Positions 3,711-42,693 of a DNA stretch of 64,000 bases are shown one piece after another. The notes under the pieces are model-generated. The model saw nothing but the letters and a program-made list of their open reading frames with translations, was not told the origin of the DNA and made no database searches. A program made the translations under genes and the position numbers. The stretch comes from a phage: the NCBI GenBank assembly GCA_004257845.1, contig GCA_004257845.1_4800.1. One strand, 5' to 3'. The first letter of the stretch is position 1; every line of letters begins with the position of its first letter.

Positions 3711-4328
3711 ATGACTTTCCAAACTAGTGTAGGCCGTCAATATACAACTGGCTTTCCTGGCGACATCGTTCGCGACGGCCCACAGCGTGGGAAGCCAGGT
3801 CGAATCGTTAGCGCCAACGAAGGTGCAAACGTAAACGCCATCAGCCGTGTGTTTGGTTTTAAAGCTGACGTATCTTTAATGGGCACTGGCCAAACCAAAA
3901 CCTTGGGCGCGCAGGACTTTGAAGTTGAACTGGGCGGCACCAATTACTATGGCATCCTTGGCAACAGCAAGCGTTACGCTCTGTATGGCAACTCTACTGG
4001 GCCTTTGGGTGCCAGCATGGTTCTGCCTCAATATAGCGAAGGCGAGTTTTACGATATGTGCACGGGCCTCGTAGTTGAAGTATTCAACCCTGGCACCAGT
4101 CCGCAGACGCTGAACTACGGCGACCTGCTCGCTTATGTACCTAAAGGCATTTCCAGCGGCAACAACCCGAACAACTTGCCTATCGGTGCAATTATCGCCT
4201 ATACTGGCTCACTGCCAACTGGCATGGCTGCCATTCCAGGCGGTATCGTGATTGACCCGACTGCTATTGCCCTTTCCGGCCCAAGCGTCCAGTCTTCCAC
4301 TTATACCATTGTACAATTGACTCGTTAA
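3711..4328 (+). CDS. capsid-associated structural protein (possible decoration protein)
   Basis: ATG at 3711 preceded by AAAGGGGA; Gly/Thr/Ser-rich; sits between scaffold-like and major capsid genes. Confidence 0.4.
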   Translation: MTFQTSVGRQYTTGFPGDIVRDGPQRGKPGRIVSANEGANVNAISRVFGFKADVSLMGTGQTKTLGAQDFEVELGGTNYYGILGNSKRYALYGNSTGPLGASMVLPQYSEGEFYDMCTGLVVEVFNPGTSPQTLNYGDLLAYVPKGISSGNNPNNLPIGAIIAYTGSLPTGMAAIPGGIVIDPTAIALSGPSVQSSTYTIVQLTR

Positions 4329-4342
4329 TAGGCAGGTGAATA

Positions 4343-5482
4343 ATGACTCGCATTAGCCAAACACACTCTCGCCTCCCAGCGAGCAAGGTGCGCCCTTTTG
4401 ATATGCAATCCGTTACCGACGCGGCTGTTTCCCAGCTTGCTCGTATCGGTATTGTGTTTGATTCCGCGATTGTGCGTGATCAGATTGAGCACTTAAACCG
4501 TGCAGGCGCTTTCCGCGTAGGTGATGCCGCGTTTACTGCGCCGCAGACCACTCCGTCAATCCCGACCCCGTTGCAGTTCCTGCAGCAGTGGTTGCCTGGC
4601 TTCGTCAAAATCATGACCGCCGCTCGTAAAATCGACGAGCTGGTTGGTATTGATACCGTTGGTCAGTGGGAAGATGCAGAAATCGTTCAGGGTATCGTTG
4701 AACCAGCTGGCACCGCAGTTGAATATGGTGATTTCACCTCTATTCCTCTGGCAAGCTGGAACGTAAACTTTGAACGTCGTTCTATCGTTCGTGGCGAAAT
4801 GGGCATGGCAGTTGGTATGCTGGAAGAAGGCCGCGCGTCTGCGATGCGTCTGAACTCCGCAGAAACCAAGCGCCAGCAGGCTGCTGTATCTCTGGAAATC
4901 ATGCGTAACGCAATCGGCTTCTATGGCTGGTACAACGGGAACAACCGTACATTCGGCTTCCTGAATGATCCAAATCTGCCAGCGGCGATGACTTCCAACA
5001 CCACTTCCGGCTGGGCTACTGCGACCTTCCAACAGGTGACTGCAGACATCCGTTTGATGGTTCGTCAAATTCGTGTGAACTCTCAGGACCAGATTGATCC
5101 AGAGAAGGTTGACATGACTCTGGCACTGCCGACCAACTCTATCGATTGGCTGTCCAACACCACTGACTTCGGTATTTCTGTACGTGACTGGATCACCCAG
5201 ACTTATCCGAAGATGAAGATCAAGTCTGCACCGGAACTCAACGGCGCACTTGGCAGCGACCCGACTTTCTTGAACGTGGCATACCTGTACGCTGATCACA
5301 TCGATTCCTCAATCGATGGTTCAAGCGATGATGGTTCCGTATTCAGTCAGCTGGTTCAGACCAAGTTCATGACTCTGGGCGTTGAAAAGCGTGCTAAGAG
5401 CTACGTCGAAGACTACGCAAACGCAACAGCAGGCGTTCTGCTCAAGCGTCCTTTCGCAGTCGTCCGTATGACTGGTATTTAA
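4343..5482 (+). CDS. major capsid protein (putative)
   Basis: 379-aa ORF following scaffold-like gene; RBS AGGTGAA before ATG; followed by GC-rich stem-loop; position and size typical of major capsid genes. Confidence 0.5.
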
Positions 5483-25781: not shown

Positions 25782-26405
25782 TTATTGTCCTGTAACTTCT
25801 CTGATCACACGGTCTTCAAGTTCCAGCTTCTTTACCATTTTGCAGGAGTGCTCATAAGCTGGATCAGTAGATTTGATGAACGTTCCGTTGTACATGACAC
25901 CTTTGCGGTCCTTGATGTCTTCGTAGGCCGCTTGCGCACAGTCGGATAAGCGAAGGCCATAATCATGAGCTACGCCGGAAAGGTAATCGACTGCGGCCAT
26001 GATGGTGACGTCAATATCCATGGTCTGATTCTTAGCAATAGCATCACCAAGCCGTCCAAGGGTCTTTGCCAGGCGAAGGATGAATGAATGAGGGTGAGCG
26101 CCTTTATCAGCACAACCGCCGCCATTAATGTTTTCGATTTCAGTACCGTTTTGCGCCGCCAGGATGGTCAACACAACAAGACAATCGCCAATGTCGTCCT
26201 TGATTGCAGCTTGCAAGTCACAGATGGCCTGCTCTGTATATCCAATTTCAGGGTCGAAGAACACAAGGTCATGGAGTTGATCAACGTGGTCGGTTAACTC
26301 CCCAAACTCGCTGATAAGCTTCGGGTATTGGTCCTTAAGGTCGCAACCTTGGATGATGTTACGGTCAGAAGCCCACTGGCGAATGTTTGCATAAATCTGT
26401 TTCAT
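25782..26405 (-). CDS. MazG-like nucleotide pyrophosphohydrolase
   Basis: EFGELTD ... DDIGDCLVVL arrangement resembling the ExxE ... ExxD metal-binding motifs of MazG/NTP-PPase domains. Confidence 0.45.
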   Translation of the reverse strand: MKQIYANIRQWASDRNIIQGCDLKDQYPKLISEFGELTDHVDQLHDLVFFDPEIGYTEQAICDLQAAIKDDIGDCLVVLTILAAQNGTEIENINGGGCADKGAHPHSFILRLAKTLGRLGDAIAKNQTMDIDVTIMAAVDYLSGVAHDYGLRLSDCAQAAYEDIKDRKGVMYNGTFIKSTDPAYEHSCKMVKKLELEDRVIREVTGQ

Positions 26406-26978: not shown

Positions 26979-27839
26979 TTAAAACTCTTCTGCGTCGGTC
27001 GGAGTTTCATTGACAGGACCAGCGGCACCGCTTGCTTCTTCCTGCTTGCTGCGGTCGATGTTAACGTTACCGCCAACTACGTCGTTGCGGAATGCCTTGG
27101 CGACTTCGTACAGACCTTTGTCCTGCACCAGACCTTCCAGCTCAAACTTCAGAACGGACCAGGTGTTGCCGTCTTTGGACTGGGATGCAGTACCCATGCG
27201 AACGATGTTCATAAAGGTCGGCGGCGTTTTCAAACCTTGCGGAGTTTGAACTTTCTTCTGCTGCAGCGCGGTCATCAGCATACGAGACGGCTTGATCATC
27301 GAAGAAGTCAAAGACAGCATGGCACTGCCAAATTCACCCGTTTCTTCGTTCAACAGAATCACGAAGTGGTTACGTGTATCTGCATAGTAAGGAGATTTCT
27401 TCTCGTGCACTTTGCCGTTTTCGTCCGGCACAAATACCTTACCGTTGATCTCAACAGCGCGGCCTGCCGCGACTTCTGCATCAACGTGCTCTTTGGTGAA
27501 TTCACCTTTAAAGCCTTTATCGTCGGACTCGCGACCGCCCCAAAGGATGAAGGTGCGTTTGAATGCGCAAGGGATGATCTGCACGCCTTTCTTGCCGTCA
27601 TACAACTCACCAGTAACGGTGTTGTAAAGCATGCCAGCTTTTGCACCAGGAACGTGTTTTGGATCATCTTCGTCGACCATAGGAGACATCTTCTGCAGGA
27701 CGACGATAAAAGGAATGGCATACGCATCGGCATCGGCACCTTCAAAACCAGCGCCAAAATCGGTCATGTCGACAAAATCAGCCATAGCGGACATCTGGGT
27801 GTTTTTCACTGCAACTTCGGTGGTTTCTTTCTTAGACAT
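26979..27839 (-). CDS. ssDNA-binding protein (T7 gp2.5-like), putative
   Basis: Acidic C-terminal tail ending ...TDAEEF (terminal aromatic), as in gp2.5-type SSBs; located in replication module. Confidence 0.4.
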   Translation of the reverse strand: MSKKETTEVAVKNTQMSAMADFVDMTDFGAGFEGADADAYAIPFIVVLQKMSPMVDEDDPKHVPGAKAGMLYNTVTGELYDGKKGVQIIPCAFKRTFILWGGRESDDKGFKGEFTKEHVDAEVAAGRAVEINGKVFVPDENGKVHEKKSPYYADTRNHFVILLNEETGEFGSAMLSLTSSMIKPSRMLMTALQQKKVQTPQGLKTPPTFMNIVRMGTASQSKDGNTWSVLKFELEGLVQDKGLYEVAKAFRNDVVGGNVNIDRSKQEEASGAAGPVNETPTDAEEF

Positions 27840-27898
27840 TTGATATTTTCCTATAGTATCAAGTTTCGTGGCAACCTGATTTCAAGATAAAGGTTAAA

Positions 27899-28456
27899 TT
27901 ACTTTTTGCTTTTAGGCAAGGTTATTTTAGCTTCTTTGTATTCAAAAACGCTAATATCTTCACTAACTGGATTGCCCGCTTCCAGCTGTTCTTTTACAAA
28001 CGACTTCAGTGTAGCAGAATGAACGCCTTGTTTCAACGTGGCTTCAACACCATCTTCACGCAGCGCGGCAACAATCTCTTGCGCCTGTTCGATTTCTTCG
28101 CGACCGAACTCAGCCGTGACGCTGGACTTGATCAAGCCGCCGTAACCGTTGTTGACAAGCCAATCGAAAACTTTTAATTCGTTTTCTTTCTTGATTGAAG
28201 CGTTCACCTTGGACTCGACCTTGATTTTGGTCTTGTCCTCAAGCTTGATTTCGGACACGCCAAGCTCATCCATAACGCCAGGAAGCAGAACAGTTTTGAT
28301 TTCACTGATTCGCTGCTTTTGCATATCAGCTTCATCTTCAAGCTCTGTCAAAGCTTCTTGGCGTTCTGCCAGTTCAGATACTAAGCGCGCAAGGCGCTCT
28401 TGAATGCTCTCAGGAGCGACCTGCGGCAAATCATCTTCCCAATTAATATTGCTCAT
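27899..28456 (-). CDS. acidic coiled-coil protein, hypothetical
   Basis: ORF; 4-nt overlap with downstream gene. Confidence 0.4.
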   Translation of the reverse strand: MSNINWEDDLPQVAPESIQERLARLVSELAERQEALTELEDEADMQKQRISEIKTVLLPGVMDELGVSEIKLEDKTKIKVESKVNASIKKENELKVFDWLVNNGYGGLIKSSVTAEFGREEIEQAQEIVAALREDGVEATLKQGVHSATLKSFVKEQLEAGNPVSEDISVFEYKEAKITLPKSKK

Positions 28457-30314: not shown

Positions 30315-30733
30315 GACAATTCCTCTAAATACTTGATGATGTGATGGATGGACCCGCTCGCGGCGACCATAGCCAGAATCTCATGCTTAGTATATTCTTT
30401 TAATCGCAATGAAGGGTGAACTAAATAATAAGCCTTTTCAGAGTCCACCTTCAGCAACACGAATGACGAGAATTTCCAATCACTCCAAGAAGTCAAAAAG
30501 CTTTGTTGACCTTTCTCAAATGCGCTCTTGAAAGGAAGAGTGGTGGCCCTTGCAGGCCACGATTCAAAGAACTTCATTTCAAGCCAAAAGCCGCGCCCTT
30601 TCCGGTTGGTGCCGATTACGTCCGGCACACCATCACCCGTCATTGATTCGATTCTTTGAAGCTTCAAGATTGATTCTGAATGCTTCTTCAAAGGCACGAA
30701 TATGTATTTCTGTTCACGGTTATTTGTTGCCAT
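30311..30733 (-). CDS. VRR-NUC domain nuclease
   Basis: PD-(D/E)xK-like GVPDVIG...WLEMKF; 4-nt overlap with SNF2 helicase gene; start taken at internal Met just after polymerase stop. Confidence 0.5.
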   Translation of the reverse strand: MATNNREQKYIFVPLKKHSESILKLQRIESMTGDGVPDVIGTNRKGRGFWLEMKFFESWPARATTLPFKSAFEKGQQSFLTSWSDWKFSSFVLLKVDSEKAYYLVHPSLRLKEYTKHEILAMVAASGSIHHIIKYLEELS

Positions 30734-33617
30734 CTGGATACACCTGTTTGATAACGTCGACGATGAACATGTCAATGCCTTCAAGTTTGCGGCCTTTCAT
30801 CAGGAAGAATGCGCCGTTCCCGACGTTCTCTGCAATGTATTTCCCGTATTTCTGGAACTTCTCTGGACGAATCCTGAAGCGCATTGGCGAGTCGGTCGAA
30901 TCGTCCTTGCACATAAGGTCAATGAACTGAGTCTCAAGCTTGTTTCCATACTGGTCAAACTCTGCGTAGCGGCCATCAGCTTGAAGACCCTTTTTAAGTT
31001 TGCCGTGCTTTGTATAAATGCCGCGCTCAAGACGTTTACGGATGCGTGTCGCTTCGTTCTCGTCAGCCAGCACTTTCTTGGTCAACTTGCCGATCACTAT
31101 TGCACGCTCGTCATCGCCGACTTCCTTCATCTGGCGTATTGAAGCACCGGAAGTAACGCCAATCAGATAGGGGTCATTATATGCCCATCCGAACTTTGTG
31201 TGCATCTCTGTAAGGTCGCCGTATTTGACTTCAGCATTGGCCAATGCATCCTTTTGCTTTTGCGTTAAGGTTCCGGCTTCACGTGCTTCGATATACTTCA
31301 TCGCCTTCACCATGCCATATCCTTTTGCGTTCATGATGCCGCCGATTAGCTTTCCGTTAGCGATGGTCCAGTTCATTGAAGAGTGATCAGGGTCGATTGG
31401 CACATAATCCACGCCTTCCTTCGCAAGTTCACGTAATATCGCAATCGTCTGGTCTTCGTCCTTAGCAGCGCGTAAGCAAGCAGCGGCAAATTCCAACGGG
31501 TAGTGTCGCTTAAGCCACAAGGTCCAGTAGGTCACGACCGCGTATGATACGGAGTGTGACTTGTTAAAGCCCCATGACCCGAACGTCGCCATCGCTTGCC
31601 AAAGCTTTCTTGCATCCGCTTCCGGTACGCCGTTATTTATTGCTCCTGCAACGAAGTCTTCGCCAAGCTTGTTAAAGTATTCCTCACCCTTACGACCTGA
31701 CATCGCCTTACGTACAGCGGATGTTTTCGCCCAGTCAAATGAACCAATCTCTTTGACCACGGCCATGATTTGCTCTTGGTAAAGAAACACGCCGTAAGTC
31801 TCTTTTAAGTACGGCTCAAGCTGCGGCACGTCGTACTCAATCGGCGCACGTCCTGCCGCGCGTTCAATGTATTTCTGGGCCATACCGGACGACAACGGGC
31901 CAGGTCGGCCAAGTGCTGTCAGGTTATCGATTTTGTTAAAGTTATCAACGTGCACAAAGTTGGTTACTGAGCGTACAGCGTCGCCTTCAAACTGGAAGAT
32001 GCCTGACATCTTGTTTTCGTTAAGGATGTCAAGGACGCTTTGGTCATCAAGCTTGATTCCGTACAGCGTTTCAGCATCTATCACGCCAGTATCAGAAATG
32101 ATTCCGAGAGTACGAAGGCCCAGCGCATCAAGCTTCAAAAGGTTTAGGTATTCGCTGTCAGGCTTATCGATTTGCGCAATCCCTTCTGCAGTTACAGTAC
32201 AGTAATCAGAGATTGGGTCATTACACACAATGATTCCCGCTGCGTGAACACCTGTGTGAGACGGGTGAATCTCAAGGTCACCCATGCAACGCGCGGCGTC
32301 AGGATATTTCGCCACGAACTCTTGGCCCGTGGTCGTTGTTGCAAAGGTATCCTCCAGGCCGTGACCATAACGGGCGTCACCGGATGAGTATTCAAGCAGT
32401 GCGTTTTTAATGTTGGCTGTTTCGTGGTATCCAATGTTGAACTTCTTACCAACTTGAGCCATTACTGAGTTGGCCTTAAGCGTGTTGATGTTGCCAAGCT
32501 TTGCAACGTTCATTTCGCCGTATTTCTCTTTAAGATAATCAAACACCATATAGCGTTTGGTATCTTCAAAGTCGATGTCGATGTCAGGAAGGTCGGCGCG
32601 GCTTACGTCGATGAATCGGGCAAACAGTAGCTTATACGGGATTGGGTCCACTTCCGTGATGCCGAGGCAATAGCAAACAAGTGAACCAGCCGATGAGCCG
32701 CGAGCAGGACCGACGAGCATTTTTGTTTTTGCGAATCGTACAAGGTCTGCTACCACCAGAAAGTATGAGTCGAAATCTTTCAGCTGAATCTGGTGAATTT
32801 CTTCGTTGAAGCGGTCCTCGTATTCCTGAGTCCATTCTTTGATGTGACCTGCTTTGAGACGGTACTCCATGCCCTCACGCGCAAGCTTTACCATGTCACC
32901 AGCAAGGTGAATAATCGGTGCCTTACGCAATTTCAGGTCAAGTCCGACTATGCCGTTTGCTATGTCAACAGCATTGGCCGTTGCCTGATTGAGCTCATCT
33001 TCAGTCAAGATGCCTTTAAGCTGTTTTCGCAAGTCTTCCGCGTCAACGATGCAATGCGGCTTCACCGTGTCGCGCACTTCCCAAGCATAAGCAAAGTCAA
33101 CGTGCTCAGGTGAAGGCATGTGGTTGTATCCGGTTAAAACCAGCGGCCTTCCACCACTACGATGAGCCAACACCTGGCGCTTTGCCAAAAGGAACGACGA
33201 TGGGTTGACGTCTATATAGTCGTAGTCCTCTGGCCGCAGCAGTTCCACGGCACCGCCACAGAATTTAACGACGCCATCGAGCGCCCCGAACTCTGCACGG
33301 GTAAGACCACCACGCTGCGTTGCAAGTGTTGTAGCGTTGTAAAAAGATTTTAAGTCAAGGGCCAATATCCAAGCCTTCGGTTTGAATCCCTTTTTCGGGT
33401 CCGCATCAGGGTCGATGATTGGAATCTCCATTCCAAACATAGGATTAATATCATTTTTCTGGCATTCCTTTTCCCAGCGAACGTGACCCCATGTGTTGTT
33501 ATCAACTAATGCCGCGACTTCGCAGCCCAACTCTTTGAGCCGTGCTATAATTTCAGGATGCCGTCCATAAACTTCTTTGAACGTGTAACCGCTGCGAACT
33601 CTCAATTGTGGAAACAT
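30720..33617 (-). CDS. dnaE: DNA polymerase III alpha subunit-like (DnaE-type) replicative polymerase
   Basis: Catalytic palm motif LPDIDIDFED, FNKSHSVSYAVVTYWTLWLKRHYPLEF, GRPGP; N-terminal PHP-like region. Confidence 0.8.
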   Translation of the reverse strand: MFPQLRVRSGYTFKEVYGRHPEIIARLKELGCEVAALVDNNTWGHVRWEKECQKNDINPMFGMEIPIIDPDADPKKGFKPKAWILALDLKSFYNATTLATQRGGLTRAEFGALDGVVKFCGGAVELLRPEDYDYIDVNPSSFLLAKRQVLAHRSGGRPLVLTGYNHMPSPEHVDFAYAWEVRDTVKPHCIVDAEDLRKQLKGILTEDELNQATANAVDIANGIVGLDLKLRKAPIIHLAGDMVKLAREGMEYRLKAGHIKEWTQEYEDRFNEEIHQIQLKDFDSYFLVVADLVRFAKTKMLVGPARGSSAGSLVCYCLGITEVDPIPYKLLFARFIDVSRADLPDIDIDFEDTKRYMVFDYLKEKYGEMNVAKLGNINTLKANSVMAQVGKKFNIGYHETANIKNALLEYSSGDARYGHGLEDTFATTTTGQEFVAKYPDAARCMGDLEIHPSHTGVHAAGIIVCNDPISDYCTVTAEGIAQIDKPDSEYLNLLKLDALGLRTLGIISDTGVIDAETLYGIKLDDQSVLDILNENKMSGIFQFEGDAVRSVTNFVHVDNFNKIDNLTALGRPGPLSSGMAQKYIERAAGRAPIEYDVPQLEPYLKETYGVFLYQEQIMAVVKEIGSFDWAKTSAVRKAMSGRKGEEYFNKLGEDFVAGAINNGVPEADARKLWQAMATFGSWGFNKSHSVSYAVVTYWTLWLKRHYPLEFAAACLRAAKDEDQTIAILRELAKEGVDYVPIDPDHSSMNWTIANGKLIGGIMNAKGYGMVKAMKYIEAREAGTLTQKQKDALANAEVKYGDLTEMHTKFGWAYNDPYLIGVTSGASIRQMKEVGDDERAIVIGKLTKKVLADENEATRIRKRLERGIYTKHGKLKKGLQADGRYAEFDQYGNKLETQFIDLMCKDDSTDSPMRFRIRPEKFQKYGKYIAENVGNGAFFLMKGRKLEGIDMFIVDVIKQVYPDGNK

Positions 33618-34159
33618 TATTTACTCCAGATGTCATATACGCCAATTTGTTGGCAGACTTTGTGCAGTAATATTACGTCGTCTAATGCACGGTGTTTCTG
33701 TTCATATTTTCCGAAATATAATTCATACAGCTCTTGAAGCTTAACTCTTCGGCCAAAAATAGGCAAGGTTTGCTCAACTGTACAAATGTTTATTTCTGGA
33801 AAATTAACATCATCAAGCGTAAGTCCTTCGCGCTGTAGTGCATAATCAAGAATGTTTTTATCGAACGCATGGTTGTGCGCGATAGTTGCATCAGTCTTCT
33901 TGAAGATTTCTTTTAGCTGCGGGACGAAATTGATGAACGGTGGATTGCACTCAAGGTCTTCATTTGTTAATCCGGTAATCTTTGTGATAATTTCTTCAAT
34001 CACGATTTCAGGATTAATTATGAATTCAAACGTTTCAAGAATCTCTTTGCCGTCTGTCAACAGACCTGCAAATTCAATAGGGCGCGGCTGCATCCCAAGC
34101 GGCGCTTTCGGGTGCACGGTCAATCCGGTTGTTTCGAAGTCATAAGGGAGAAATAACAC
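33617..34159 (-). CDS. dnaQ: DnaQ-like 3'-5' exonuclease (DEDDh)
   Basis: Exo I YDFETTGL, Exo II IAHNHAFDKNIL, Exo III HRALDDV. Confidence 0.75.
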   Translation of the reverse strand: MLFLPYDFETTGLTVHPKAPLGMQPRPIEFAGLLTDGKEILETFEFIINPEIVIEEIITKITGLTNEDLECNPPFINFVPQLKEIFKKTDATIAHNHAFDKNILDYALQREGLTLDDVNFPEINICTVEQTLPIFGRRVKLQELYELYFGKYEQKHRALDDVILLHKVCQQIGVYDIWSK

Positions 34160-34213
34160 ATTAGCCTCCTACAAAAAGGCCGCCCATTAGGACGGCCACA
34201 GATTCACGATTCG

Positions 34214-34765
34214 TTATACAGTGTACGGAGTACCGTCTTGATTCAAGCGCACGATAAACTTCAAATCAACGCCGATGATTTCACGCGTATCAAAGATCAC
34301 ATAGTTGTAACGACGTTGACCAGCAATGTTCGGGTTGGTATGAGAGTCAGTTACAACTTCCTGTGCAACCTGAATGCCTTCTTCGCTAAAGAACTTACGC
34401 CATTCAGCAAGTTCAGCGGCAGTTACGTGCATACCAAGATGGCTAACCTGATTGTCATGCGCATCGATATATTCGATGTTTTCGTTAATCCAGTTGCAGC
34501 CCATTGTGTAGTCAAGGATTTCAAGCTCAAGAGGCTTACCAGCGCCGCCATCAGTACCGTTGCCAGCCTGATAGTTGAAGCGCAAGTCAGCTTCATTGGT
34601 GCAATCGTCGCGACGACCTTTAAAGTCATCAGCTTCAAATACGCGACCAGTAGCAACAACATGATCATGGAACCATTCTGTCAGGCCGATTTTAGCCAAG
34701 AAATCCTGTGCGCGCTGAGCATCTGGAATTGACAGGGCGATTTGTTCAATTTTAAAATGTGGCAT
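34214..34765 (-). CDS. hypothetical protein (possibly VOC/glyoxalase-like)
   Basis: ORF; weak resemblance only. Confidence 0.3.
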   Translation of the reverse strand: MPHFKIEQIALSIPDAQRAQDFLAKIGLTEWFHDHVVATGRVFEADDFKGRRDDCTNEADLRFNYQAGNGTDGGAGKPLELEILDYTMGCNWINENIEYIDAHDNQVSHLGMHVTAAELAEWRKFFSEEGIQVAQEVVTDSHTNPNIAGQRRYNYVIFDTREIIGVDLKFIVRLNQDGTPYTV

Positions 34766-34861
34766 TTTGTTTCCTTAATTAAATATTATTGATTAATTAC
34801 TGTGTTGTCTTCGTCCTGTTTCTTTTCAGGAGCGGGTGTGACAACTTCAAATGTTCGTGAT

Positions 34862-35545
34862 TTATTTACCAAATGGAATATCAGTACCAGACATAAAGCG
34901 CCATGCGCCAGTAATTAAGATATGGCGAATGAAGTCAGCAATTACTTGCGGCTCAGTCTCCAATCCATTCATCAATGCCTTTTTCTGGTATTCAGCAGCG
35001 TATTCAGGAGTCCAGCCGCGAGTCGCGCAAACGGCATCTTCAATCTGTTTAGACATGCCAGTGCCGCGCAACTTGTTAGGACTAATAGAGAATACCGTGA
35101 TGCCGTACTTAGGCGTAAGTTCGTGAGCCATCTGCTTGCTGATCATAAGCGCAGCAGCCTTGGATGCATTATAACACAAGCTGGACGTCATAGGAATATG
35201 CGCAGCGTTGGAAACGATGTTGATCACAAAGCCTTTGTTGTCGATAAGACTTTTCAGCGCAGCCTGAGTCGTGTTAACGAAAGAGAATGCGTTGGTGTGC
35301 ATAACGCGGTTAAACTCTTCATAGTTTACATCTTCAAACCAATTGTTAGAGTTGACACCAGCACAGTTGATCAAGCCTTCAACATCATATGGGCTTAAAA
35401 TTTCTTTCATCTGTTTAGCATCGCGGACGTCATATCCGTATGCTGAATCGATGCCAAGCACGTTATGACCGTAAGCGCCAAGGGTGTCAAAAATAGATTT
35501 ACCAAGACCGGAATTGGAACCTGTTACAACAATTACTTTTTTCAT
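34862..35545 (-). CDS. short-chain dehydrogenase/reductase (SDR)
   Basis: TGSNSGLGKS (TGxxxGxG), NCAG, catalytic YNASK (YxxxK). Confidence 0.7.
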   Translation of the reverse strand: MKKVIVVTGSNSGLGKSIFDTLGAYGHNVLGIDSAYGYDVRDAKQMKEILSPYDVEGLINCAGVNSNNWFEDVNYEEFNRVMHTNAFSFVNTTQAALKSLIDNKGFVINIVSNAAHIPMTSSLCYNASKAAALMISKQMAHELTPKYGITVFSISPNKLRGTGMSKQIEDAVCATRGWTPEYAAEYQKKALMNGLETEPQVIADFIRHILITGAWRFMSGTDIPFGK

Positions 35546-35610
35546 TTATTTATCCTTTTTGGACTTCGTTTCGATGAGGTAAATATAACTCATCGAAACG
35601 CACAAGTAAA

Positions 35611-36483
35611 CTATTTATTGAAATTAATATTATGGGTGTTTACAAGACGTTCACACATGGCGCTATAAACACCATCGTCGTGTATTGAGTCTTCGTGCTT
35701 CAGGCCGCTGATTGCGAAGCGTGTAAGCTTGACAATCTTAAGCTCGAACAGATGCCACATGTGGTAGTCTTCCGGCGTTTTCAGCGTCACGCCATTAGGG
35801 AACAACACCTGCATAACCTGACCTACCATCACAGCGTTATCGCCATAAACGGCATTGCGCTCACGGAAGGTCGCGGCCATCGCATCAAGAATATCGGCGG
35901 CAGTTGCCGGAGATTGTTCAACTTCCACAGCCTTAGTCTCTTCTTGCCCTGTTGCGCTTGGATCAATTGCTAATTGTTGCACCACTTCACCTGCTTTGCA
36001 AAGATTAAATGTAAAAGCGATTTTATTTTGAGCAACGGAGTTATAATACAATGCTTCATCTTGCATCCGCGCGAGTACGTCTTGTCGGTCGTCGAATACA
36101 TTGATGATTCGATAATCGCCGTGCCGCAAAGCGTGCGATAGCCATGCAGATTTCATAATAGTTGATGGACGTTTGTCGCCATAGTCTCTCATCTTGATTG
36201 TAAATTCATCAAAAGGGAAAACATTGTCCAGACGTTCAAAAGTCACTTGTCTGTATTTTTCTGGCCTTGCAGTCCAATATTCAACCGCCTCACCGCGAAG
36301 AGATGCCGACTCTACTGCTGATGCAATGTGAGGATAGAACTGATCATAACCAATACCGCTGTGATAGTCATCATAGTCTGACAACGGACCTGCCACCTTG
36401 ATGCGGTCTAAGCGCCAACGGTCATCAAACAGCGTTCCGTCAAGGTCGAATACGTTTAAGATTTCGCTGTTTTTAATGCTCAT
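35611..36483 (-). CDS. HAD-superfamily phosphatase-like protein
   Basis: Motif I VFDLDGTLFD; later INVFDD. Confidence 0.5.
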   Translation of the reverse strand: MSIKNSEILNVFDLDGTLFDDRWRLDRIKVAGPLSDYDDYHSGIGYDQFYPHIASAVESASLRGEAVEYWTARPEKYRQVTFERLDNVFPFDEFTIKMRDYGDKRPSTIMKSAWLSHALRHGDYRIINVFDDRQDVLARMQDEALYYNSVAQNKIAFTFNLCKAGEVVQQLAIDPSATGQEETKAVEVEQSPATAADILDAMAATFRERNAVYGDNAVMVGQVMQVLFPNGVTLKTPEDYHMWHLFELKIVKLTRFAISGLKHEDSIHDDGVYSAMCERLVNTHNINFNK

Positions 36484-37283
36484 CCTTTTGATACTCCATC
36501 TTTAGCAACTGGATTGTTGGTGATTGGCATTGCACTCCAAAACTGGATGCGCAACTCTTCTTGCTGTGCCGTGGTATCCATCCAATCACGATACCAAGGG
36601 CAATGGGCTTTGCCATGACGAGGAAACGCGCACTTACCCATACCGATGCACTGAGGCTGTAGTAAAGGATTGGCCCACGGGTGCACCTTAAGGACTTCCG
36701 CAACCATTGCACGGAATACTTCTTGATACTCGCCTTGAGTACGCGTGCACAAGCGGTTAGAGGCCATTTGTTGCAGAGTGCGCAAGTTGAACTTTGCCAT
36801 GATATGCGTTTGCATATTAGAAGGCAACACGGCACGTGCATCTTGAATCTCTGCGCCAGCCGCGCGAAGTTCTTGGTATAGGGCGTCAATGGTTGCCATT
36901 GCATCATCCCATTTCTCTGCCAGTTCAGCAGCCTTCTCGTCATGACGAGTCCATCCCTTTGGATCATCCTCTGGGTAAGTAAATTTGGCAGGACGAATCG
37001 CATCAAATGCTGACGACTCCTGAGCGCGGCTTGTGCGTTCTTGATATGCACCTGTGCGTGTGCGCACCATCTGATGAGTCATATTCTTTGATACATCAGT
37101 GATGTCAAAGATATAGTCCACAAAGTCAAAAGGCGACTTGATTGTATCAAGCATGTAGCGCCAGTGCTCTTGCTTCTCTGATTCTGTCATCTCAGAGACT
37201 GGCTTACCAGTCATGCGCGTGTTCTTTGTTTCCAGCAAAAGGTCAAGTGCATCTTGGGTGTATCGAATTAATTCAACTTTCAT
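36480..37283 (-). CDS. thyX: flavin-dependent thymidylate synthase (ThyX)-like protein, RTR variant
   Basis: THQMVRTRTGAYQERTSR aligns with ThyX signature (Q..RHR..SY.E.S.R) but has Thr in place of His in RHR. Confidence 0.55.
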   Translation of the reverse strand: MKVELIRYTQDALDLLLETKNTRMTGKPVSEMTESEKQEHWRYMLDTIKSPFDFVDYIFDITDVSKNMTHQMVRTRTGAYQERTSRAQESSAFDAIRPAKFTYPEDDPKGWTRHDEKAAELAEKWDDAMATIDALYQELRAAGAEIQDARAVLPSNMQTHIMAKFNLRTLQQMASNRLCTRTQGEYQEVFRAMVAEVLKVHPWANPLLQPQCIGMGKCAFPRHGKAHCPWYRDWMDTTAQQEELRIQFWSAMPITNNPVAKDGVSKG

Positions 37284-37296
37284 TTTAATTATCCTA

Positions 37297-37743
37297 TTAA
37301 CGGTAATTCACTAGTTGCTGATCACCAGAGAAGGTGCAATGATAAACGAATTGTGCGTTATAAAGCAACTGAAAACTTTTCTTTGGTTCATTATTAGAAC
37401 TCATTGATGTAAAGATTTCTGCACCAGAACGGTTTTCACCAATCAGGTTAATAAAGCCGCCAGTTGAACGAGGCTGAACGAAAGTGAAACGCTGCATCCA
37501 CGGAGTCCGGTTGGCACCTTTTCCAGTGAATCCCTGAATCTGAATATTCAGACCTTCTTGCTCGTTCACACCGATGTAAGTGGTAATTGTTGCGCCAGTC
37601 GTCGCTGCGGTCTTGCCGTCCATCGCTTCGCAATCGTAAACAGCGATTGAATCGGAAGTACGGACAGCGGCTTCAGTCGCTTCCATATACATGGTTCCGA
37701 GAATAGCAGTCGCGGCAAGCGCGATTCCAGTGATGCGTTTCAT
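37297..37743 (-). CDS. secreted protein, hypothetical
   Basis: Signal-peptide-like N-terminus MKRITGIALAATAILGTMYMEA. Confidence 0.4.
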   Translation of the reverse strand: MKRITGIALAATAILGTMYMEATEAAVRTSDSIAVYDCEAMDGKTAATTGATITTYIGVNEQEGLNIQIQGFTGKGANRTPWMQRFTFVQPRSTGGFINLIGENRSGAEIFTSMSSNNEPKKSFQLLYNAQFVYHCTFSGDQQLVNYR

Positions 37744-37808
37744 TTTCGTTTCCTCTATGAGTTCTGCTTCAATGATTAAAGTATACGCCCATTGAAGCAG
37801 AAAGCAAA

Positions 37809-38804
37809 TTATTTATTAGCAATATAAGCAAATTTTTGATAGTTATTTGCTTTGATGAGTTTTTCAACTTCAGCAAGGTCATGAGCGACGTCATCAAGCA
37901 AAATGTTTCGCCAAGTAGCGAATCGACCGACACTAAATACGTTCAAATCCATAGTCAACTGGAGCAGTAAGGCGTGGCGCAAGTCTTTCGGAATGTCGAC
38001 AATTTTGCCATACTTCTGGTCAACCTTTTCAACTTCTTCCAAAGAGATGTCATTCCATGAAAGACCAAAAGCGGTAAGAACTTCATCCACTTCTGCACGC
38101 AGCTTCATGTCGCGATAACGGGTAATGCCGCCAGCGGCTTCAACTGCTGCCGCGCTGACGCTTACCAATGGAATTGTTTCAATGATCAGCGTGTCACCAG
38201 TGATTGATGCGCGGTAAGTCCTTACAGAATAGTCAGGGAAGTAAATTGTTTGATAAAGTTCACACTTGCGCTTAATCTTAAAACGATAAACGCGAATATT
38301 TGCCTTATCAAACGAGAAGTCGAGTTTTTGATCAATACCAGCAAGCTTCATCATGACTGGCAGCGGCGATGTGTTGATGATTGGCGTCTCGCTATAGCCG
38401 CAAAGCGTGTCGACCGGAGTATTAAAGAATATACGGTCACCCAGTTTATCGACAAGTTGATCATAAAAGTCATCCGGCGCTATGTAGCGCGTAGCAGTTT
38501 GAAGCTTCATGATTGAGCGGCTGCCAAACTGGTTGGTGACTTTCATAGAGTACATGTTGGCAAGGTTAATCGGGCAGTGGTCGTGATAGTAGTTGCCGCG
38601 AAAATACACAGCCTTATCGACTGTCACGGCCTTAAAGGGGATTCCGGTAATACGGCTTACTTCTTCGCCGCGAAATCGTAGCAGCGCCTTGTGCTGCGCG
38701 ACGCGTTCGCCTGCTTCGTACACAATAGAGTTCGGAAAGTGACAAGCCGTGATAAGTCCTGCCAGTCCGCCGCCGATAATCATTACAGGTTGTTTCATGT
38801 TCAT
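37809..38804 (-). CDS. FAD/NAD(P)-binding Rossmann-fold oxidoreductase-like protein
   Basis: N-terminal VMIIGGGLAGLITA (GxGxxG) followed by IVYEAG. Confidence 0.5.
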   Translation of the reverse strand: MNMKQPVMIIGGGLAGLITACHFPNSIVYEAGERVAQHKALLRFRGEEVSRITGIPFKAVTVDKAVYFRGNYYHDHCPINLANMYSMKVTNQFGSRSIMKLQTATRYIAPDDFYDQLVDKLGDRIFFNTPVDTLCGYSETPIINTSPLPVMMKLAGIDQKLDFSFDKANIRVYRFKIKRKCELYQTIYFPDYSVRTYRASITGDTLIIETIPLVSVSAAAVEAAGGITRYRDMKLRAEVDEVLTAFGLSWNDISLEEVEKVDQKYGKIVDIPKDLRHALLLQLTMDLNVFSVGRFATWRNILLDDVAHDLAEVEKLIKANNYQKFAYIANK

Positions 38805-38888
38805 TTGTCCTTTGTGGGTGATATGATAAGTATAATAGCTAAATTATCTTACAGCAACAAGTCATTTTATTTAGTACAGACGAAAAAA

Positions 38889-38909
38889 GACCCACAACTG
38901 GTGTGGGTC
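38889..38909 (-). terminator. intrinsic terminator downstream of Lys/Ala/Glu-rich protein gene
   Basis: Stem GACCCACA / TGTGGGTC followed on the minus strand by TCTTTTTTC. Confidence 0.65.
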
Positions 38910-38937
38910 AATTACCGCTACATAACCGTCCTAGAGG

Positions 38938-39786
38938 TTATTCTGCTTGATCGTCGTGCTCTTCGGCATCTGCTTCGGATTCAACATCGATGAACTCGAT
39001 GTGGCCCATCTCTTCCAGTTTGCTCAGGTAAGAGCGAACTGAAGCGCCAAACAGCTGATCTTTAACTTTTTCACCCAGCTCGTCGATAGACTGCGGCTGA
39101 CCGATTTCACCTTCTTTGATCGCAGCCAGTACGCGACCACGGGTGGAATGTTCTTGCGGCTGGCTCAGGCCGTTTCCGGTGTAAACAAAGTGAGTTGCTT
39201 TAGCGCGACGCTGACCATTAGCTTTCTTGGCGGCTTTACGCTCTGCAATCGCTTTGCGACGCTCTTCAGCTTCTTTCTTACGCTGTTCTTTCTGTTGTTC
39301 TGCAGCTTCTTTCGCCGCAATCTTAGCAGCTTCACGCTCTGCCTTGCGTTTCGCTTTCGCTTCTTCTTTAGCCTTTTCTTTTTCGGCTTTCGCTTCTGCA
39401 CGGGCCTGATCACGTTCAGCCTTTTTCGCCGCAGCTTGTTCAGCTTTCAGGCGCTTGGCTTCTTCTTTCGCCTTTGCCTTTTCAATTTCTTTAGCGGCTT
39501 TAGCGGCTTCACGCTCTGCCTTCTTAGCAGCAGCCTTTTCAGCACGCTCTGCAGCCTTCTTAGCGGCTTCTTCAGCACGCTTCTGAGCCTTCTCGTCAGC
39601 AGCCTGCTTGCGTTTCAGCGCAGCTTCTTCACGCTTGGCTTGTTTTTCCTGCTCACGCTTCTGGCGTTTTTCTTCGGCTTCTTTCTTTTTAGCCAGGCGT
39701 TTTTCTTCAGCCACGCGACGACGTTCTGCTGCAGCTGCTTGTTTTTCTTCTTTAGATAATACTTTGATTGCTTCGGCCATATTCAC
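38938..39786 (-). CDS. Lys/Ala/Glu-rich low-complexity protein with C-terminal globular domain (histone H1-like composition)
   Basis: About 190 aa of KAE-rich repeats (KKAAERAEKAAAKKAEREAAKAAKE...) then non-repetitive C-terminus; strong terminator downstream. Confidence 0.5.
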   Translation of the reverse strand: MNMAEAIKVLSKEEKQAAAAERRRVAEEKRLAKKKEAEEKRQKREQEKQAKREEAALKRKQAADEKAQKRAEEAAKKAAERAEKAAAKKAEREAAKAAKEIEKAKAKEEAKRLKAEQAAAKKAERDQARAEAKAEKEKAKEEAKAKRKAEREAAKIAAKEAAEQQKEQRKKEAEERRKAIAERKAAKKANGQRRAKATHFVYTGNGLSQPQEHSTRGRVLAAIKEGEIGQPQSIDELGEKVKDQLFGASVRSYLSKLEEMGHIEFIDVESEADAEEHDDQAE

Positions 39787-41124: not shown

Positions 41125-41450
41125 TATAACTCCACTACGCTTTCAAGGTCCAGATATACTGGAATAAAATGGCAATCTTCTTTTCGTTCAAACATCTCAC
41201 CATCAACATGGCTGAAGAAAACAGTCGTGTTTGGTATCTTCCATCCTTTCTCGTCGCGCACTAAGTACGCCATGGATTCAACAGGGATGTACAGAGATAC
41301 CGGATTTGCGGCAAAAATAAATTTGATTCTGTCTGGTTGACCCAGGAATCGCATGATTGTTAGGCTTGAATTCAATCTTGTATTAAGGAAGGACTCAACG
41401 ATTCCGACGTGTGTTGCACGTTCGCGTTGCTTCGTCTCTTTTTCGTTCAT
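41124..41450 (-). CDS. hypothetical protein
   Basis: ORF; start overlaps helicase; minus-strand promoter upstream. Confidence 0.4.
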   Translation of the reverse strand: MNEKETKQRERATHVGIVESFLNTRLNSSLTIMRFLGQPDRIKFIFAANPVSLYIPVESMAYLVRDEKGWKIPNTTVFFSHVDGEMFERKEDCHFIPVYLDLESVVEL

Positions 41451-41488
41451 TTCAGGCGACCTTTGTTAGTGCGGAAATATTTTCTGAT

Positions 41489-41517
41489 AGTATAATTGCA
41501 GATATAGTATAAAGCAA
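41489..41517 (-). promoter_or_regulatory. sigma70-like promoter on minus strand (TTGCTT-17 nt-TATACT)
   Basis: Minus-strand -35 TTGCTT (plus 41512-41517), -10 TATACT (plus 41489-41494); divergent from + strand promoter. Confidence 0.4.
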
Positions 41518-41553
41518 AGTAAATCGAAATTGTGAACTAAATGGTAAATATTG

Positions 41554-41581
41554 TTGACTTTGTATCACTCAATATTATACT
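41554..41581 (+). promoter_or_regulatory. sigma70-like early promoter (TTGACT-16 nt-TATACT)
   Basis: -35 TTGACT 41554-41559, -10 TATACT 41576-41581, upstream of RBS GAAGGAAAG and ATG at 41611. Confidence 0.5.
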
Positions 41582-41610
41582 GCAGGTATTGATCACCGAA
41601 GGAAAGAAAG

Positions 41611-42693
41611 ATGGCTAGTTTAAGAGAAGAAGCAAAAATAATTGAAGAGTTTTTAACAGAACTCCAAAGAGGCATCCCAGAAGATGAGCGCGTCATGACG
41701 GTGTTTGCTCCTGAAGCAACGGTGCAGACCGACGAGCGCGGCAAGAAGATCAACAGCAGCTTCTGGCCTAAGCCTTGGAAGTTGGGCAAGCCGCTCATGC
41801 AGCACCAAAACGGCTATGCATGCATCAGTTCAATGCGTAAGTCTCCCAACCCAAAGACGGGTGAGATGCGATACTGGCGTACAGAGTCGGCCTTTGGTCA
41901 CGGCATGGCGATGATGGTCGACGACATCGGTCACGGTAAAGGTTCCAAAGGCGATTTAGATTTGGAATTCTTTTTTGAGCGACTGAAGCCGACTGTCATC
42001 GTCGAGACTTCACCGAACAACCACCAGCTTTGGTACTTCTTTAAAGAACCGATTGACCATCTTATTCAGTTCAAAGCGTTCCTTGGGTCTTTCGTTAACA
42101 TGGTACTCAAGAAGGGCGGCGACAACACGATTAAAGACGTAACGCGCGTGGGTCGTGTTCCTGGGTGCATCAACAACAAGCGTGTGACTCACGACGGCCC
42201 CTATAAATATGTCGATGAGAACGGCGACCCGTTCCGCTGCCGACTTGTCCATGCAGACTACTCATTGCGCTACACCATCGAAGACATTTGTCAGGCATTT
42301 GGCTTTCACGTCGTCATGCCACAAAATCGTGAGATTCAAATTGACGTCGATGAATACAAGTATGATGCTGTTTGGTATAAAATAGCCCAGCAGATTCTAT
42401 CGCGCAACAAGATGGGTGAAGGGTCTGATGGCGACGTCATCGAGAATATGTCAGGCAAGTGCCGCATAATCTGTCCTTGGGGTGAAGAACACACCAACGG
42501 CGACCCGTATGGCGCTTACTTTCGCGGCCCTATCCCTGGTGCAGAACATGAGTTTGTGTTCGGTTGCGCCCACGACTGTCACCGGAAAGGGGAAGGCAAG
42601 AAAGGTTGGACTGCTTTTGTTGAAGCAATCGTCATGCCTTATATTGAGAATCAACTTGACATGATAAATCGTCGTGCAGGTGGCATAAAATAG
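41611..42693 (+). CDS. AEP-type primase-polymerase-like protein with C-terminal zinc-binding motif
   Basis: MMVDDIGHG (acidic motif), ETSPNNHQLWYFF (SxH-like), C-terminal Cys/His cluster CPWGEEH...GCAHDCH. Confidence 0.45.
   Translation: MASLREEAKIIEEFLTELQRGIPEDERVMTVFAPEATVQTDERGKKINSSFWPKPWKLGKPLMQHQNGYACISSMRKSPNPKTGEMRYWRTESAFGHGMAMMVDDIGHGKGSKGDLDLEFFFERLKPTVIVETSPNNHQLWYFFKEPIDHLIQFKAFLGSFVNMVLKKGGDNTIKDVTRVGRVPGCINNKRVTHDGPYKYVDENGDPFRCRLVHADYSLRYTIEDICQAFGFHVVMPQNREIQIDVDEYKYDAVWYKIAQQILSRNKMGEGSDGDVIENMSGKCRIICPWGEEHTNGDPYGAYFRGPIPGAEHEFVFGCAHDCHRKGEGKKGWTAFVEAIVMPYIENQLDMINRRAGGIK

Follow-up and report, generated by a model that had tools for sequence, protein, structure and literature searches.

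What do six genes with the signatures of small-molecule and nucleotide enzymes do inside the replication module of a phage? The question is raised by positions 34,214 to 38,804 of a 64,000-nucleotide stretch of phage DNA (NCBI GenBank assembly GCA_004257845.1, contig GCA_004257845.1_4800.1), which at its full length is called the window below. The window belongs to Wifcevirus, a genus of E. coli myoviruses that are distant kin of the Pseudomonas PB1-like phages and have Pbunavirus as their sister genus; the 6.2 kb around the cluster are 95.7% identical to the BASEL phage VerenaGrendelmeier/Bas101 and 92-95% identical to about 28 further records. An earlier note on this DNA had claimed six co-oriented genes between a DnaQ-like exonuclease and a RecD-like helicase. 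All six were found as minus-strand open reading frames (ORFs): g6, an FAD-binding protein (37809-38804); g5, a small secreted or lipoprotein-like ORF between g6 and g4 (37297-37743); g4, a divergent ThyX-like flavoprotein (36480-37283); g3, a HAD-DUF6378 fusion (35611-36483); g2, a classical SDR (34862-35545); and g1, a VOC-fold protein of the methylmalonyl-CoA-epimerase (MMCE) type (34214-34765). They do lie between the two flanking genes, but a seventh gene (38938-39786) is there as well. As judged from sequence comparisons, the cluster is fairly probably a biosynthetic module for the hypermodification of thymidine in TG context in virion DNA, and would be the Wifcevirus version of the pathway to the sugar-bearing thymine of Pbunavirus.

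Pbunavirus adducts and a shared gene core

New nucleosides derived from thymidine, of 362 and 390 U, are present in the virion DNA of the Pbunavirus phages F8 and 14-1 (Yee et al., bioRxiv 2025.03.31.646159; PMC12191111), where they replace about one quarter of T; they have been described as derivatives, one of a tetrose sugar alcohol and one, circularised, of an aldopentose (PMC12191111). The adducts are located in the TG motif, and enzymes with TG in their recognition site fail to cut, while EcoRI, HindIII, XbaI, DraI and BsaI do cut these DNAs (PMC12191111). The authors stress the absence of known modification genes in these phages and name no biosynthetic genes (PMC12191111). A literature search found no later paper naming the genes for the Pbunavirus adducts and no analysis of Wifcevirus DNA, and the papers on vB_Eco4M-7 and WFC/WFH report no restriction digests of these phages. 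Both F8 and 14-1 carry homologues of g6, the ThyX-like gene and the HAD-DUF6378 gene immediately upstream of DnaQ and DnaE, and the gene order g7, g6, ThyX-like, HAD-DUF6378, DnaQ, DnaE is common to Pbunavirus and Wifcevirus. The module is the best candidate for the source of the sugar-like modified thymine of Pbunavirus. Hypermodification of thymidine in phages is already known as such; the enzymes that make up the module have had no earlier connection with DNA modification.

The two genera differ in that Pbunavirus lacks the SDR/VOC pair and has five small ORFs between g6 and the ThyX-like gene, where Wifcevirus has g5. These ORFs (68-88 aa, at about 3870-5000 in the F8 and 14-1 loci, L090 and L089) are the least conserved genes between the two phages, at 78-95% identity, and count among the few differences that may have to do with the two adduct masses of 362 and 390 U. 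A specificity switch between the two masses was sought by comparing the modules of F8 and 14-1, with proteins 78-97% identical, and no clear candidate emerged.

Conservation was followed in 80 IMG/VR loci encoding a g6 homologue (39-98% identity), where absences at loci cut by a contig end were not counted separately. The ThyX-like gene lies just downstream of the g6 homologue in 76 of them, the four exceptions ending soon after g6, and is followed on the same strand by HAD (67/80) and DUF6378 (68/80). In about 20 loci (e.g. L035, L041 and L059) the start of DUF6378 differs from that of the HAD ORF, and we read a DUF6378 with its own start coordinate as a separate ORF. SDR and VOC occur in 48-50 of the 80 loci (SDR in 50), almost always together, with contig-end loci among the few exceptions, and they are always inserted between HAD-DUF6378 and DnaQ. 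DnaQ was found in 57 loci and DnaE in 52, many of the absences being attributed to contig ends; in the window the DnaQ-like exonuclease (33617-34159, minus strand; RNase_T E=9.6e-22) and the DnaE-type polymerase (30720-33617, minus strand) occupy the place immediately downstream of the module that these two genes always have. The comparison shows a core of g6, g4 and g3 in conserved order immediately upstream of DnaQ/DnaE, and g2 and g1 as an optional pair that is missing from Pbunavirus, where the core stands without SDR and VOC. The six genes proposed as one functional unit are thus better described as this core with its optional pair, tightly linked to DnaQ/DnaE.

Related arrangements were found in more distant phages. 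Cronobacter podovirus Ss1, which is unrelated, has a 4-nt overlap of its g6 and ThyX genes and a further start-stop overlap of ThyX and orf32; in a Rhizobium jumbo phage g6, ThyX and HAD-DUF6378 stand among genes for dUTPase and ribonucleotide reductase. Actinophages of Microbacterium, Mycobacterium and Gordonia have the counterpart families side by side and adjoining DnaE, and a published pham table shows these families co-distributed in actinophage clusters D, DV and EF. Microbacterium phage TinyMiny encodes an FAD/NAD oxidoreductase, an NT5C-like HAD, an SDR, a VOC protein 31% identical to g1 and a protein with the C-terminal domain of g3, while Mycobacterium phage Troll4 and Gordonia phage Ranch have a methyltransferase in addition. 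Two further features of the TinyMiny locus (L095) were observed, namely a glycosyltransferase directly after a split DnaE (37996-39072) and an unusually long ThyX-like gene (41247-42650, 467 aa) that possibly contains an intein. The g6 family, which has no Pfam model (phrog_4828), is present in 362 phage records and 1919 protein clusters; nearly all of these 362 records also have the g4-type ThyX subfamily.

Restriction-site avoidance that spares TG

Twenty 6-bp palindromes were seen 0-2 times in the window against 5-19 expected copies. Strong depletion affects 21 of the 48 palindromes without TG/CA and 1 of the 16 with it (Fisher p=0.0048), and of 57 strongly avoided hexamers 2 contain TG/CA, the background being 53% (P=1.9e-16). 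The same contrast is visible within single core sites. AGATCT, CGATCG and GGATCC have 0 copies while TGATCA has 47 against 24 expected, and 99 of the 102 GATC sites are TG-flanked on at least one strand, compared with an expected 52% (binomial p=1.7e-24). For GATC, GGCC, GTAC and GCGC, the palindromes flanked by A, C or G are nearly all missing, with CGCGCG (24 copies) as the exception, and those flanked by T are normal or enriched. The CCGG sites that survive are all RCCGGA or TCCGGY, exactly the contexts left when CCSGG, RCCGGY and TCCGGA are taken away. As for other sites in the window, CTAG is present 33 times against 136 expected, and HindIII sites (52) and SalI sites (28) are over-represented, as is TGATCA (47).

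Comparable signatures were obtained for F8, in which the TG modification has been measured (depleted palindromes 1/15 with TG and 12/38 without, p=0.055; TGATCA 22 copies and the other three palindromes 0-2), and for Cronobacter phage Ss1 (1/16 and 17/41, p=0.0085), where all 51 of 51 GATC sites are TG-flanked (binomial p=7e-13). The unmodified control T7 has 8/16 depleted palindromes with TG and 27/48 without, and 1 TGATCA; N4, taken as unmodified, has 8/16, 19/33 and 0. The TG/CA share of avoided hexamers is 2/57, 1/23 and 4/26, against 35-40% in the controls (T7 27/67, N4 22/62). In every other module-bearing contig with clear GATC depletion (Pantoea, Serratia and three uncultivated lineages) the surviving GATC sites are almost all TG-flanked. 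Pbunavirus resembles the window both in this TG-sparing avoidance and in the fraction of T that stands in TG, which is 26.4% in the window and 27.4% in F8 and matches the 'about one quarter' reported for the adducts. Taken together, the pattern of sites suggests that, in the window phage, restriction enzymes are kept off a T that precedes G.

The BASEL phenotypes, according to which Wifcevirus resists EcoRI and EcoRV in vivo and whose authors noted an unexplained restriction resistance, fit the TG pattern. In the window 14 of 15 EcoRI sites and 5 of 5 EcoRV sites are T-flanked, compared with only 8 of 25 EcoRI sites in F8; the EcoKI recognition site includes TG, and EcoP1_I, the one system that restricts these phages, recognizes AGACC, which is without TG and has about 85-90 sites. 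Since EcoRI cuts F8, while Wifcevirus withstands both EcoRI and EcoRV in vivo and its remaining sites are T-flanked, the Wifcevirus adduct is probably a different derivative from those of Pbunavirus.

As to which genes could be responsible, only five of 95 crude gene calls from the window have BLAST-detectable homologues in Ss1, namely those for DnaE, DnaQ, g6, the ThyX-like protein and a fragment of a tail fibre. Behind its ThyX, Ss1 encodes an analogous protein with a weak HAD match and DUF3310, and it has a MazG next to DnaE. When 20 further window ORFs were scanned with Pfam, no glycosyltransferase, kinase, dioxygenase (TET/JBP), methyltransferase or aGPT-Pplase was found. No ThyA-type dUMP hydroxymethylase, 5-hydroxymethyldeoxyuridine (5-hmdU) DNA kinase or aGPT-Pplase (AADT) was detected in the cluster, the 20 other ORFs or the Bas101 annotation, about 50 small ORFs being outside the individual scans, and the scanned window ORFs likewise lack a base J-type set (Fe/2OG dioxygenase of the JBP/TET type with a glycosyltransferase). 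Because Ss1 shares so few genes with the window and the scans gave no known modification enzymes, a common genetic basis of TG protection in the three lineages, if there is one, would be expected in the module or its polymerase.

Predicted proteins and their surroundings

The SDR, HAD and ThyX-like domain calls made from motifs (TGxxxGxG/YxxxK for the SDR) were upheld by Pfam matches and motifs. The g4 protein scores 107.1 bits against Pfam Thy1 (PF02511), well over the gathering cut-off of 24.8, and 83.1 bits against the NCBIfam thyX equivalog TIGR02170, below the cut-off of 87.9. Its ThyX motif is RTRTGAYQERTSR in place of RHRxxSxxxxSxR, so that RHR has become RTR and the first motif Ser is Ala. 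In T. maritima numbering, the dUMP-binding residues R74, R76, R86, R150, R177 and Q71 are all invariant in the g4 alignment, whereas H53, which stacks on folate, aligns with Ile and Y91 with Ala. In all six phage homologues that were aligned, which come from module-bearing lineages, RHR reads R[T/N/Q]R and a hydrophobic residue stands in for His53, and His53, Tyr91, Arg165 and His178 are all substituted in g4-type proteins. Compared with canonical ThyX, g4 shares the Thy1 fold and the complete set of dUMP-binding residues but differs in the R[T/N/Q]R motif, the four lost residues, the score below the cut-off, a C-terminal Cys cluster and an obligatory pairing with g6. Within the phage collection, its nearest relatives coincide almost exactly with the phages that have g6, and the actinophage groups come next. 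On these sequence features g4 is not classed as a standard ThyX. The Cys cluster, CIGMGKCAFPRHGKAHC (C-x5-C-x9-C), lies in a C-terminal extension of about 60 aa (36480-36680) and may be a metal site; it is kept in the Pbunavirus, Troll4 and Ranch homologues, while canonical ThyX and the counterparts in Ss1 and the Rhizobium phage lack it. The stop of g4 and the start of g3 overlap by 4 nt.

The g6 protein has the three-domain FAD fold of UDP-galactopyranose mutase (UGM), within the UGM/PPOX/amine-oxidase (GR2) type, with an intact dinucleotide-binding motif. It has no Pfam or NCBIfam match, and single-sequence and profile searches of PDB sequences did not retrieve UGM. PDB sequence and profile searches with g6, g1, g3 and their family profiles gave nothing useful, the POU-domain and HAD matches that appeared being due to chance. 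UGM (Glf), including the bona fide phage UGM of Rhizobium phage RL38J1, is among the closest known systems to g6, with which it shares the fold and the dinucleotide motif, but g6 is without the GLF domain or sequence-level similarity. Homology between g6 and the actinophage 'oxidoreductase' is not claimed, as hhalign (local, low-mact and global) aligned only the dinucleotide-binding motif, with a probability of at most 58%. By eye, several short motifs of the two proteins appear collinear. Only 55% of the length of the g6 homologue is matched in the record of the Pbunavirus vB_PaeM_FBPa24 (ON857934.1, 10274-10843); the gene could be naturally truncated or the assembly faulty, and the phage may serve as a natural mutant.

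The N-terminal domain of g3 (35941-36483) is a HAD phosphatase of the PNKP/NT5C type (HAD_PNKP E=5.4e-8; 33.5 bits, above the cut-off of 27.6) with DLDGT and DD motifs. No P-loop kinase domain was found with Pfam, and the C-terminal half (35611-35940) belongs to the all-helical DUF6378 family (PF19905). PF19905 is matched by 43 of 51 members of the g3 family, and the domain is homologous in TinyMiny gp59 and Rhizobium phage EVB95_204; the actinophage counterparts of the g3 HAD are NT5C-like. The g2 protein (adh_short E=2.6e-31) carries the classical SDR motif set, VTGSNSGLG, S112 and Y125-x3-K129, scores far under every NCBIfam equivalog cut-off (the best FabG model gives 74.7 against 222 bits) and is about 20 residues shorter than FabG. 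PHROGs places the SDR in the category 'moron, auxiliary metabolic gene'. The g1 protein shows the paired beta-alpha-beta-beta-beta fold of VOC proteins, with 17.8 bits against Pfam Glyoxalase_4 (cut-off 27), and the invariant residues of its family (Q8, E82, H109, H113, H142 and D167) differ from the textbook H/E/H/E metal set. Products of g1 and g2 have been detected by proteomics in relatives, that of g2 by mass spectrometry in an ECML-117 preparation. The secreted protein listed with the cluster is a real gene, g5, with an N-terminal signal-like sequence and no family match. Homologues were found in only 3 of the 80 loci, all Wifcevirus, and g5 probably stands outside the pathway.

The two strongest minus-strand terminator hairpins enclose exactly the six genes. 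One lies upstream of g6 (38889-38909, an 8-bp stem followed by TTTTTT) and the other downstream of g1 (34178-34197, an 8-bp stem with 7 GC pairs followed by TTTTTGT), and both have a terminator annotation in phage Mansfield. The gap between g1 and g2 (34766-34861) is a small indel hotspot at which several BLAST matches are split, and Mansfield and some other relatives have an additional 71-aa ORF there (CPT_Mansfield_067). The seventh gene (38938-39786, minus strand), between the cluster and the Dda/RecD-like helicase, encodes a K/E/A-rich protein of 282 aa that is called 'TolA' in the annotation of relatives (phrog_4765) and is kept among PB1-like phages (37/80 loci). MazG-like and ligase genes had also been placed nearby, and both are annotated in Bas101; the window ORFs gave weak Pfam ligase matches and no Pfam match to MazG. 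The annotations of Bas101 and F8 give a MazG-like pyrophosphatase for the ORF at 25782-26405 (minus strand), which has no Pfam or NCBIfam match at E<=0.01; the call is based on PHROG-level or remote similarity. Two conserved proteins at 26979-28456 (minus strand) match Pfam families named for cyanophage Pam3 (gp34-like, E=1.8e-85; gp33-like DUF7307, E=2.6e-37) and are placed between the lysis/MazG/ligase genes and an SNF2-type helicase.

Possible chemistry, alternatives and significance

A chemical route can be sketched for the favoured reading, a module for TG-context thymidine hypermodification. UGM and ThyX are the two textbook enzymes whose reduced flavin attacks as a nucleophile through N5 to give an iminium, with the sugar C1 in the former and a methylene in the latter. 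Because all nucleotide-binding Arg and Gln residues are retained, g4 would still bind dUMP or dTMP, while the His contacts to folate, NADPH and FAD are predicted to be lost; g6, like UGM, would activate the anomeric carbon of a sugar through its reduced-flavin N5. As both UGM and ThyX form a flavin-N5 iminium, the pairing of g6 with g4 is chemically coherent for joining a sugar to C5, and the two might jointly attach a sugar-derived chain to the pyrimidine C5 or C5-methyl. The masses of the adducts agree with a chain of sugar origin on the C5 substituent: 362 U fits dT + C4H8O4, i.e. dU + pentose - O, and 390 U fits hmdU + pentose - H2O, i.e. dU + hexose - H2O, and isomers with an ether or glycoside link would weigh as much as those with a C-C link. 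The HAD domain of g3 may remove the phosphate of a sugar-phosphate moiety or clear competing dTMP/dTTP, and DUF6378 and MazG could trim competing triphosphates. In non-Pseudomonas lineages g2 and g1 would carry out redox and epimerisation steps on the sugar chain, with a variant particular to the lineage as the result, and the modified T next to G would sterically block restriction enzymes. TG specificity is preferably thought of as set on the DNA after replication, although it may instead come from the dedicated DnaE/DnaQ, a route kept in consideration because of the strict linkage of the module to these genes. A specific, glycosyltransferase-free flavin route appears unlikely: g6 would form a flavin-N5 sugar iminium, which g4 would use, instead of flavin-N5=CH2, to alkylate C5 of dUMP, followed by HAD dephosphorylation and SDR/VOC tailoring, and the co-inherited DnaE/DnaQ would incorporate or keep the product solely 5' of G. 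Such a reaction would yield C-C-linked 1-deoxyalditol-1-yl or C-glycosyl deoxyuridines. The 5-(4',5'-dihydroxypentyl)uracil of Bacillus phage SP-15, a five-carbon polyol chain on uracil C5 that is reportedly made at the nucleotide level, is the chemically nearest precedent for the 362-U adduct if this is read as tetrahydroxypentyl-dU, and is a possible lead.

Among established systems, the 5-hmdU-derived pathways (M6, ViI, PhiW-14, SP10 and PaMx11; Lee et al. 2018, 2021) likewise replace part of T, depending on context, with a bulky C5 adduct that blocks restriction, and a flavoprotein can take part in them (PaMx11 gp47), as proposed here. They differ in using a ThyA-type dUMP hydroxymethylase, a P-loop 5-hmdU DNA kinase and an aGPT-Pplase amino-acid:DNA transferase, none of which is detectable in the scanned window ORFs, and in that their adducts are amines or amino acids while those of Pbunavirus are sugar-like. 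The suggestion that the cluster is an undescribed nucleotide or DNA-modification route, unlike the classical thymidylate synthase (ThyA)/dCMP hydroxymethylase pathways, is now well supported by synteny, the Pbunavirus chemistry and the TG signature, while the link from genes to chemistry is associative.

Several observations weigh against the hypermodification reading. The connection of gene to function is one of association and elimination, with the chemistry measured on Pbunavirus and not on Wifcevirus DNA, and shared ORFs that are small or evolve fast could fall below the sensitivity of BLAST. There is no recognisable glycosyltransferase or sequence-reading DNA-binding domain to account for TG specificity, and the intact mononucleotide-binding site of g4 suits ordinary dTMP synthesis and sits awkwardly with a sequence-specific reaction at the DNA level. 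The g6 protein resembles UGM only remotely in structure (17% identity) and has no match to it at the level of sequence, and its alignment with the actinophage oxidoreductase is confined to the dinucleotide-binding motif (58%). The k-mer signal of the actinophages TinyMiny, Ranch and Troll4 has the same direction but is no stronger than that of the N4 control (in TinyMiny 1/14 TG and 10/32 non-TG palindromes are depleted, p=0.077); the Rhizobium jumbo phage, of which the fragment is too short, is left out of this comparison. The adducts of F8 and 14-1 differ, yet their module proteins are 81-97% identical, with no obvious switch of specificity. Finally, unmodified vB_Eco4M-7 DNA derived from PCR reboots normally, and the modification would for this reason be protective and not required for replication.

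The main rival is an ordinary nucleotide supply, to which we give a minor though real chance. Here g4 would be a working ThyX and g6 its flavin/NAD(P)H reductase, compensating for the lost NADPH-site His of g4; HAD-DUF6378 and MazG would shape the dUMP, dTMP and dNTP pools for DnaE, SDR and VOC would be unrelated auxiliary metabolic genes, and any modification would be made by other genes. The clear Thy1 membership of g4 with every dUMP-binding residue kept, the position inside the replication module, beside dUTPase and ribonucleotide reductase in the Rhizobium jumbo phage, and the binding of NAD(P)H by eukaryotic UGMs (PDB matches 5vwt and 5vwu) all speak for it, as does the fact that HAD deoxynucleotidases and MazG-type pyrophosphatases are common pool-sanitising enzymes of phages. 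Such a supply would, however, leave the Pbunavirus hypermodification and the TG signature without candidate enzymes, though Ss1 shares little besides these genes. A canonical ThyX works unaided, and g6 is missing from phages that have one, while g4 falls below the thyX equivalog cut-off and is without the RHR/Ser motif and His53; a GR2/UGM fold would be unusual for a flavin reductase, and SDR and VOC follow the module across phyla.

Two other explanations are less likely. It is rather improbable that the functions are split, with the core g6/g4/g3 making the modified base and SDR, VOC and g5 forming an independent moron, e.g. for host takeover, detoxification or cell-envelope chemistry. The Pbunavirus adducts are indeed made without SDR or VOC, which occur in only about 60% of module loci, and PHROGs lists the SDR as a moron; but the two genes have always one insertion place, are nearly always paired, stand beside similar partner families in actinophages and lie with the core inside the terminator-bracketed unit, and an oxidoreductase with an epimerase-type VOC protein is a natural sugar-tailoring pair. 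That Wifcevirus DNA is unmodified, its TG-sparing arising from composition, codons or the restriction repertoire of the host and its resistance from protein inhibitors, seems very improbable. TG/CA is also somewhat under-represented among the avoided hexamers of T7 (27/67) and N4 (22/62), the palindrome test in F8 is by itself marginal (p=0.055), and T5-like phages resist restriction with no known base modification. The effect nevertheless far exceeds that in the controls (2/57, 1/23 and 4/26 against 35-40%), GATC is TG-flanked at 99/102 and 51/51 sites, the CCGG contexts show site-precise avoidance (CCSGG, RCCGGY and TCCGGA), and F8, with its measured TG modification, has a matching signature.

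If the cluster is a thymidine hypermodification module, its bearing would extend well beyond the window. Pbunaviruses are among the most used Pseudomonas therapy phages and their hypermodification was found only in 2025; the module provides a short list of three candidate core genes for it. The prediction extends to Wifcevirus, with its restriction resistance in BASEL, and to phages of Serratia, Pantoea, Xanthomonas and Cronobacter. Should the flavin route hold, there would be a large unrecognised class of TG-modified phages, comprising PB1-like phages of Escherichia, Serratia, Pantoea, Xanthomonas and Pseudomonas, some podoviruses and possibly the DnaE-encoding actinophages. Possibly new enzymology is involved as well, with two N5-iminium flavoenzyme families cooperating in base modification without the hydroxymethylase-kinase-transferase or glycosyltransferase logic on which all known pathways run. 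TG-sparing site avoidance offers a way to predict modification from the genome sequence alone, and in practice the modification would bear on the choice of restriction enzymes, sequencing chemistry and engineering strategy for these phages, and on their encounters with modification-dependent defences such as END nucleases.

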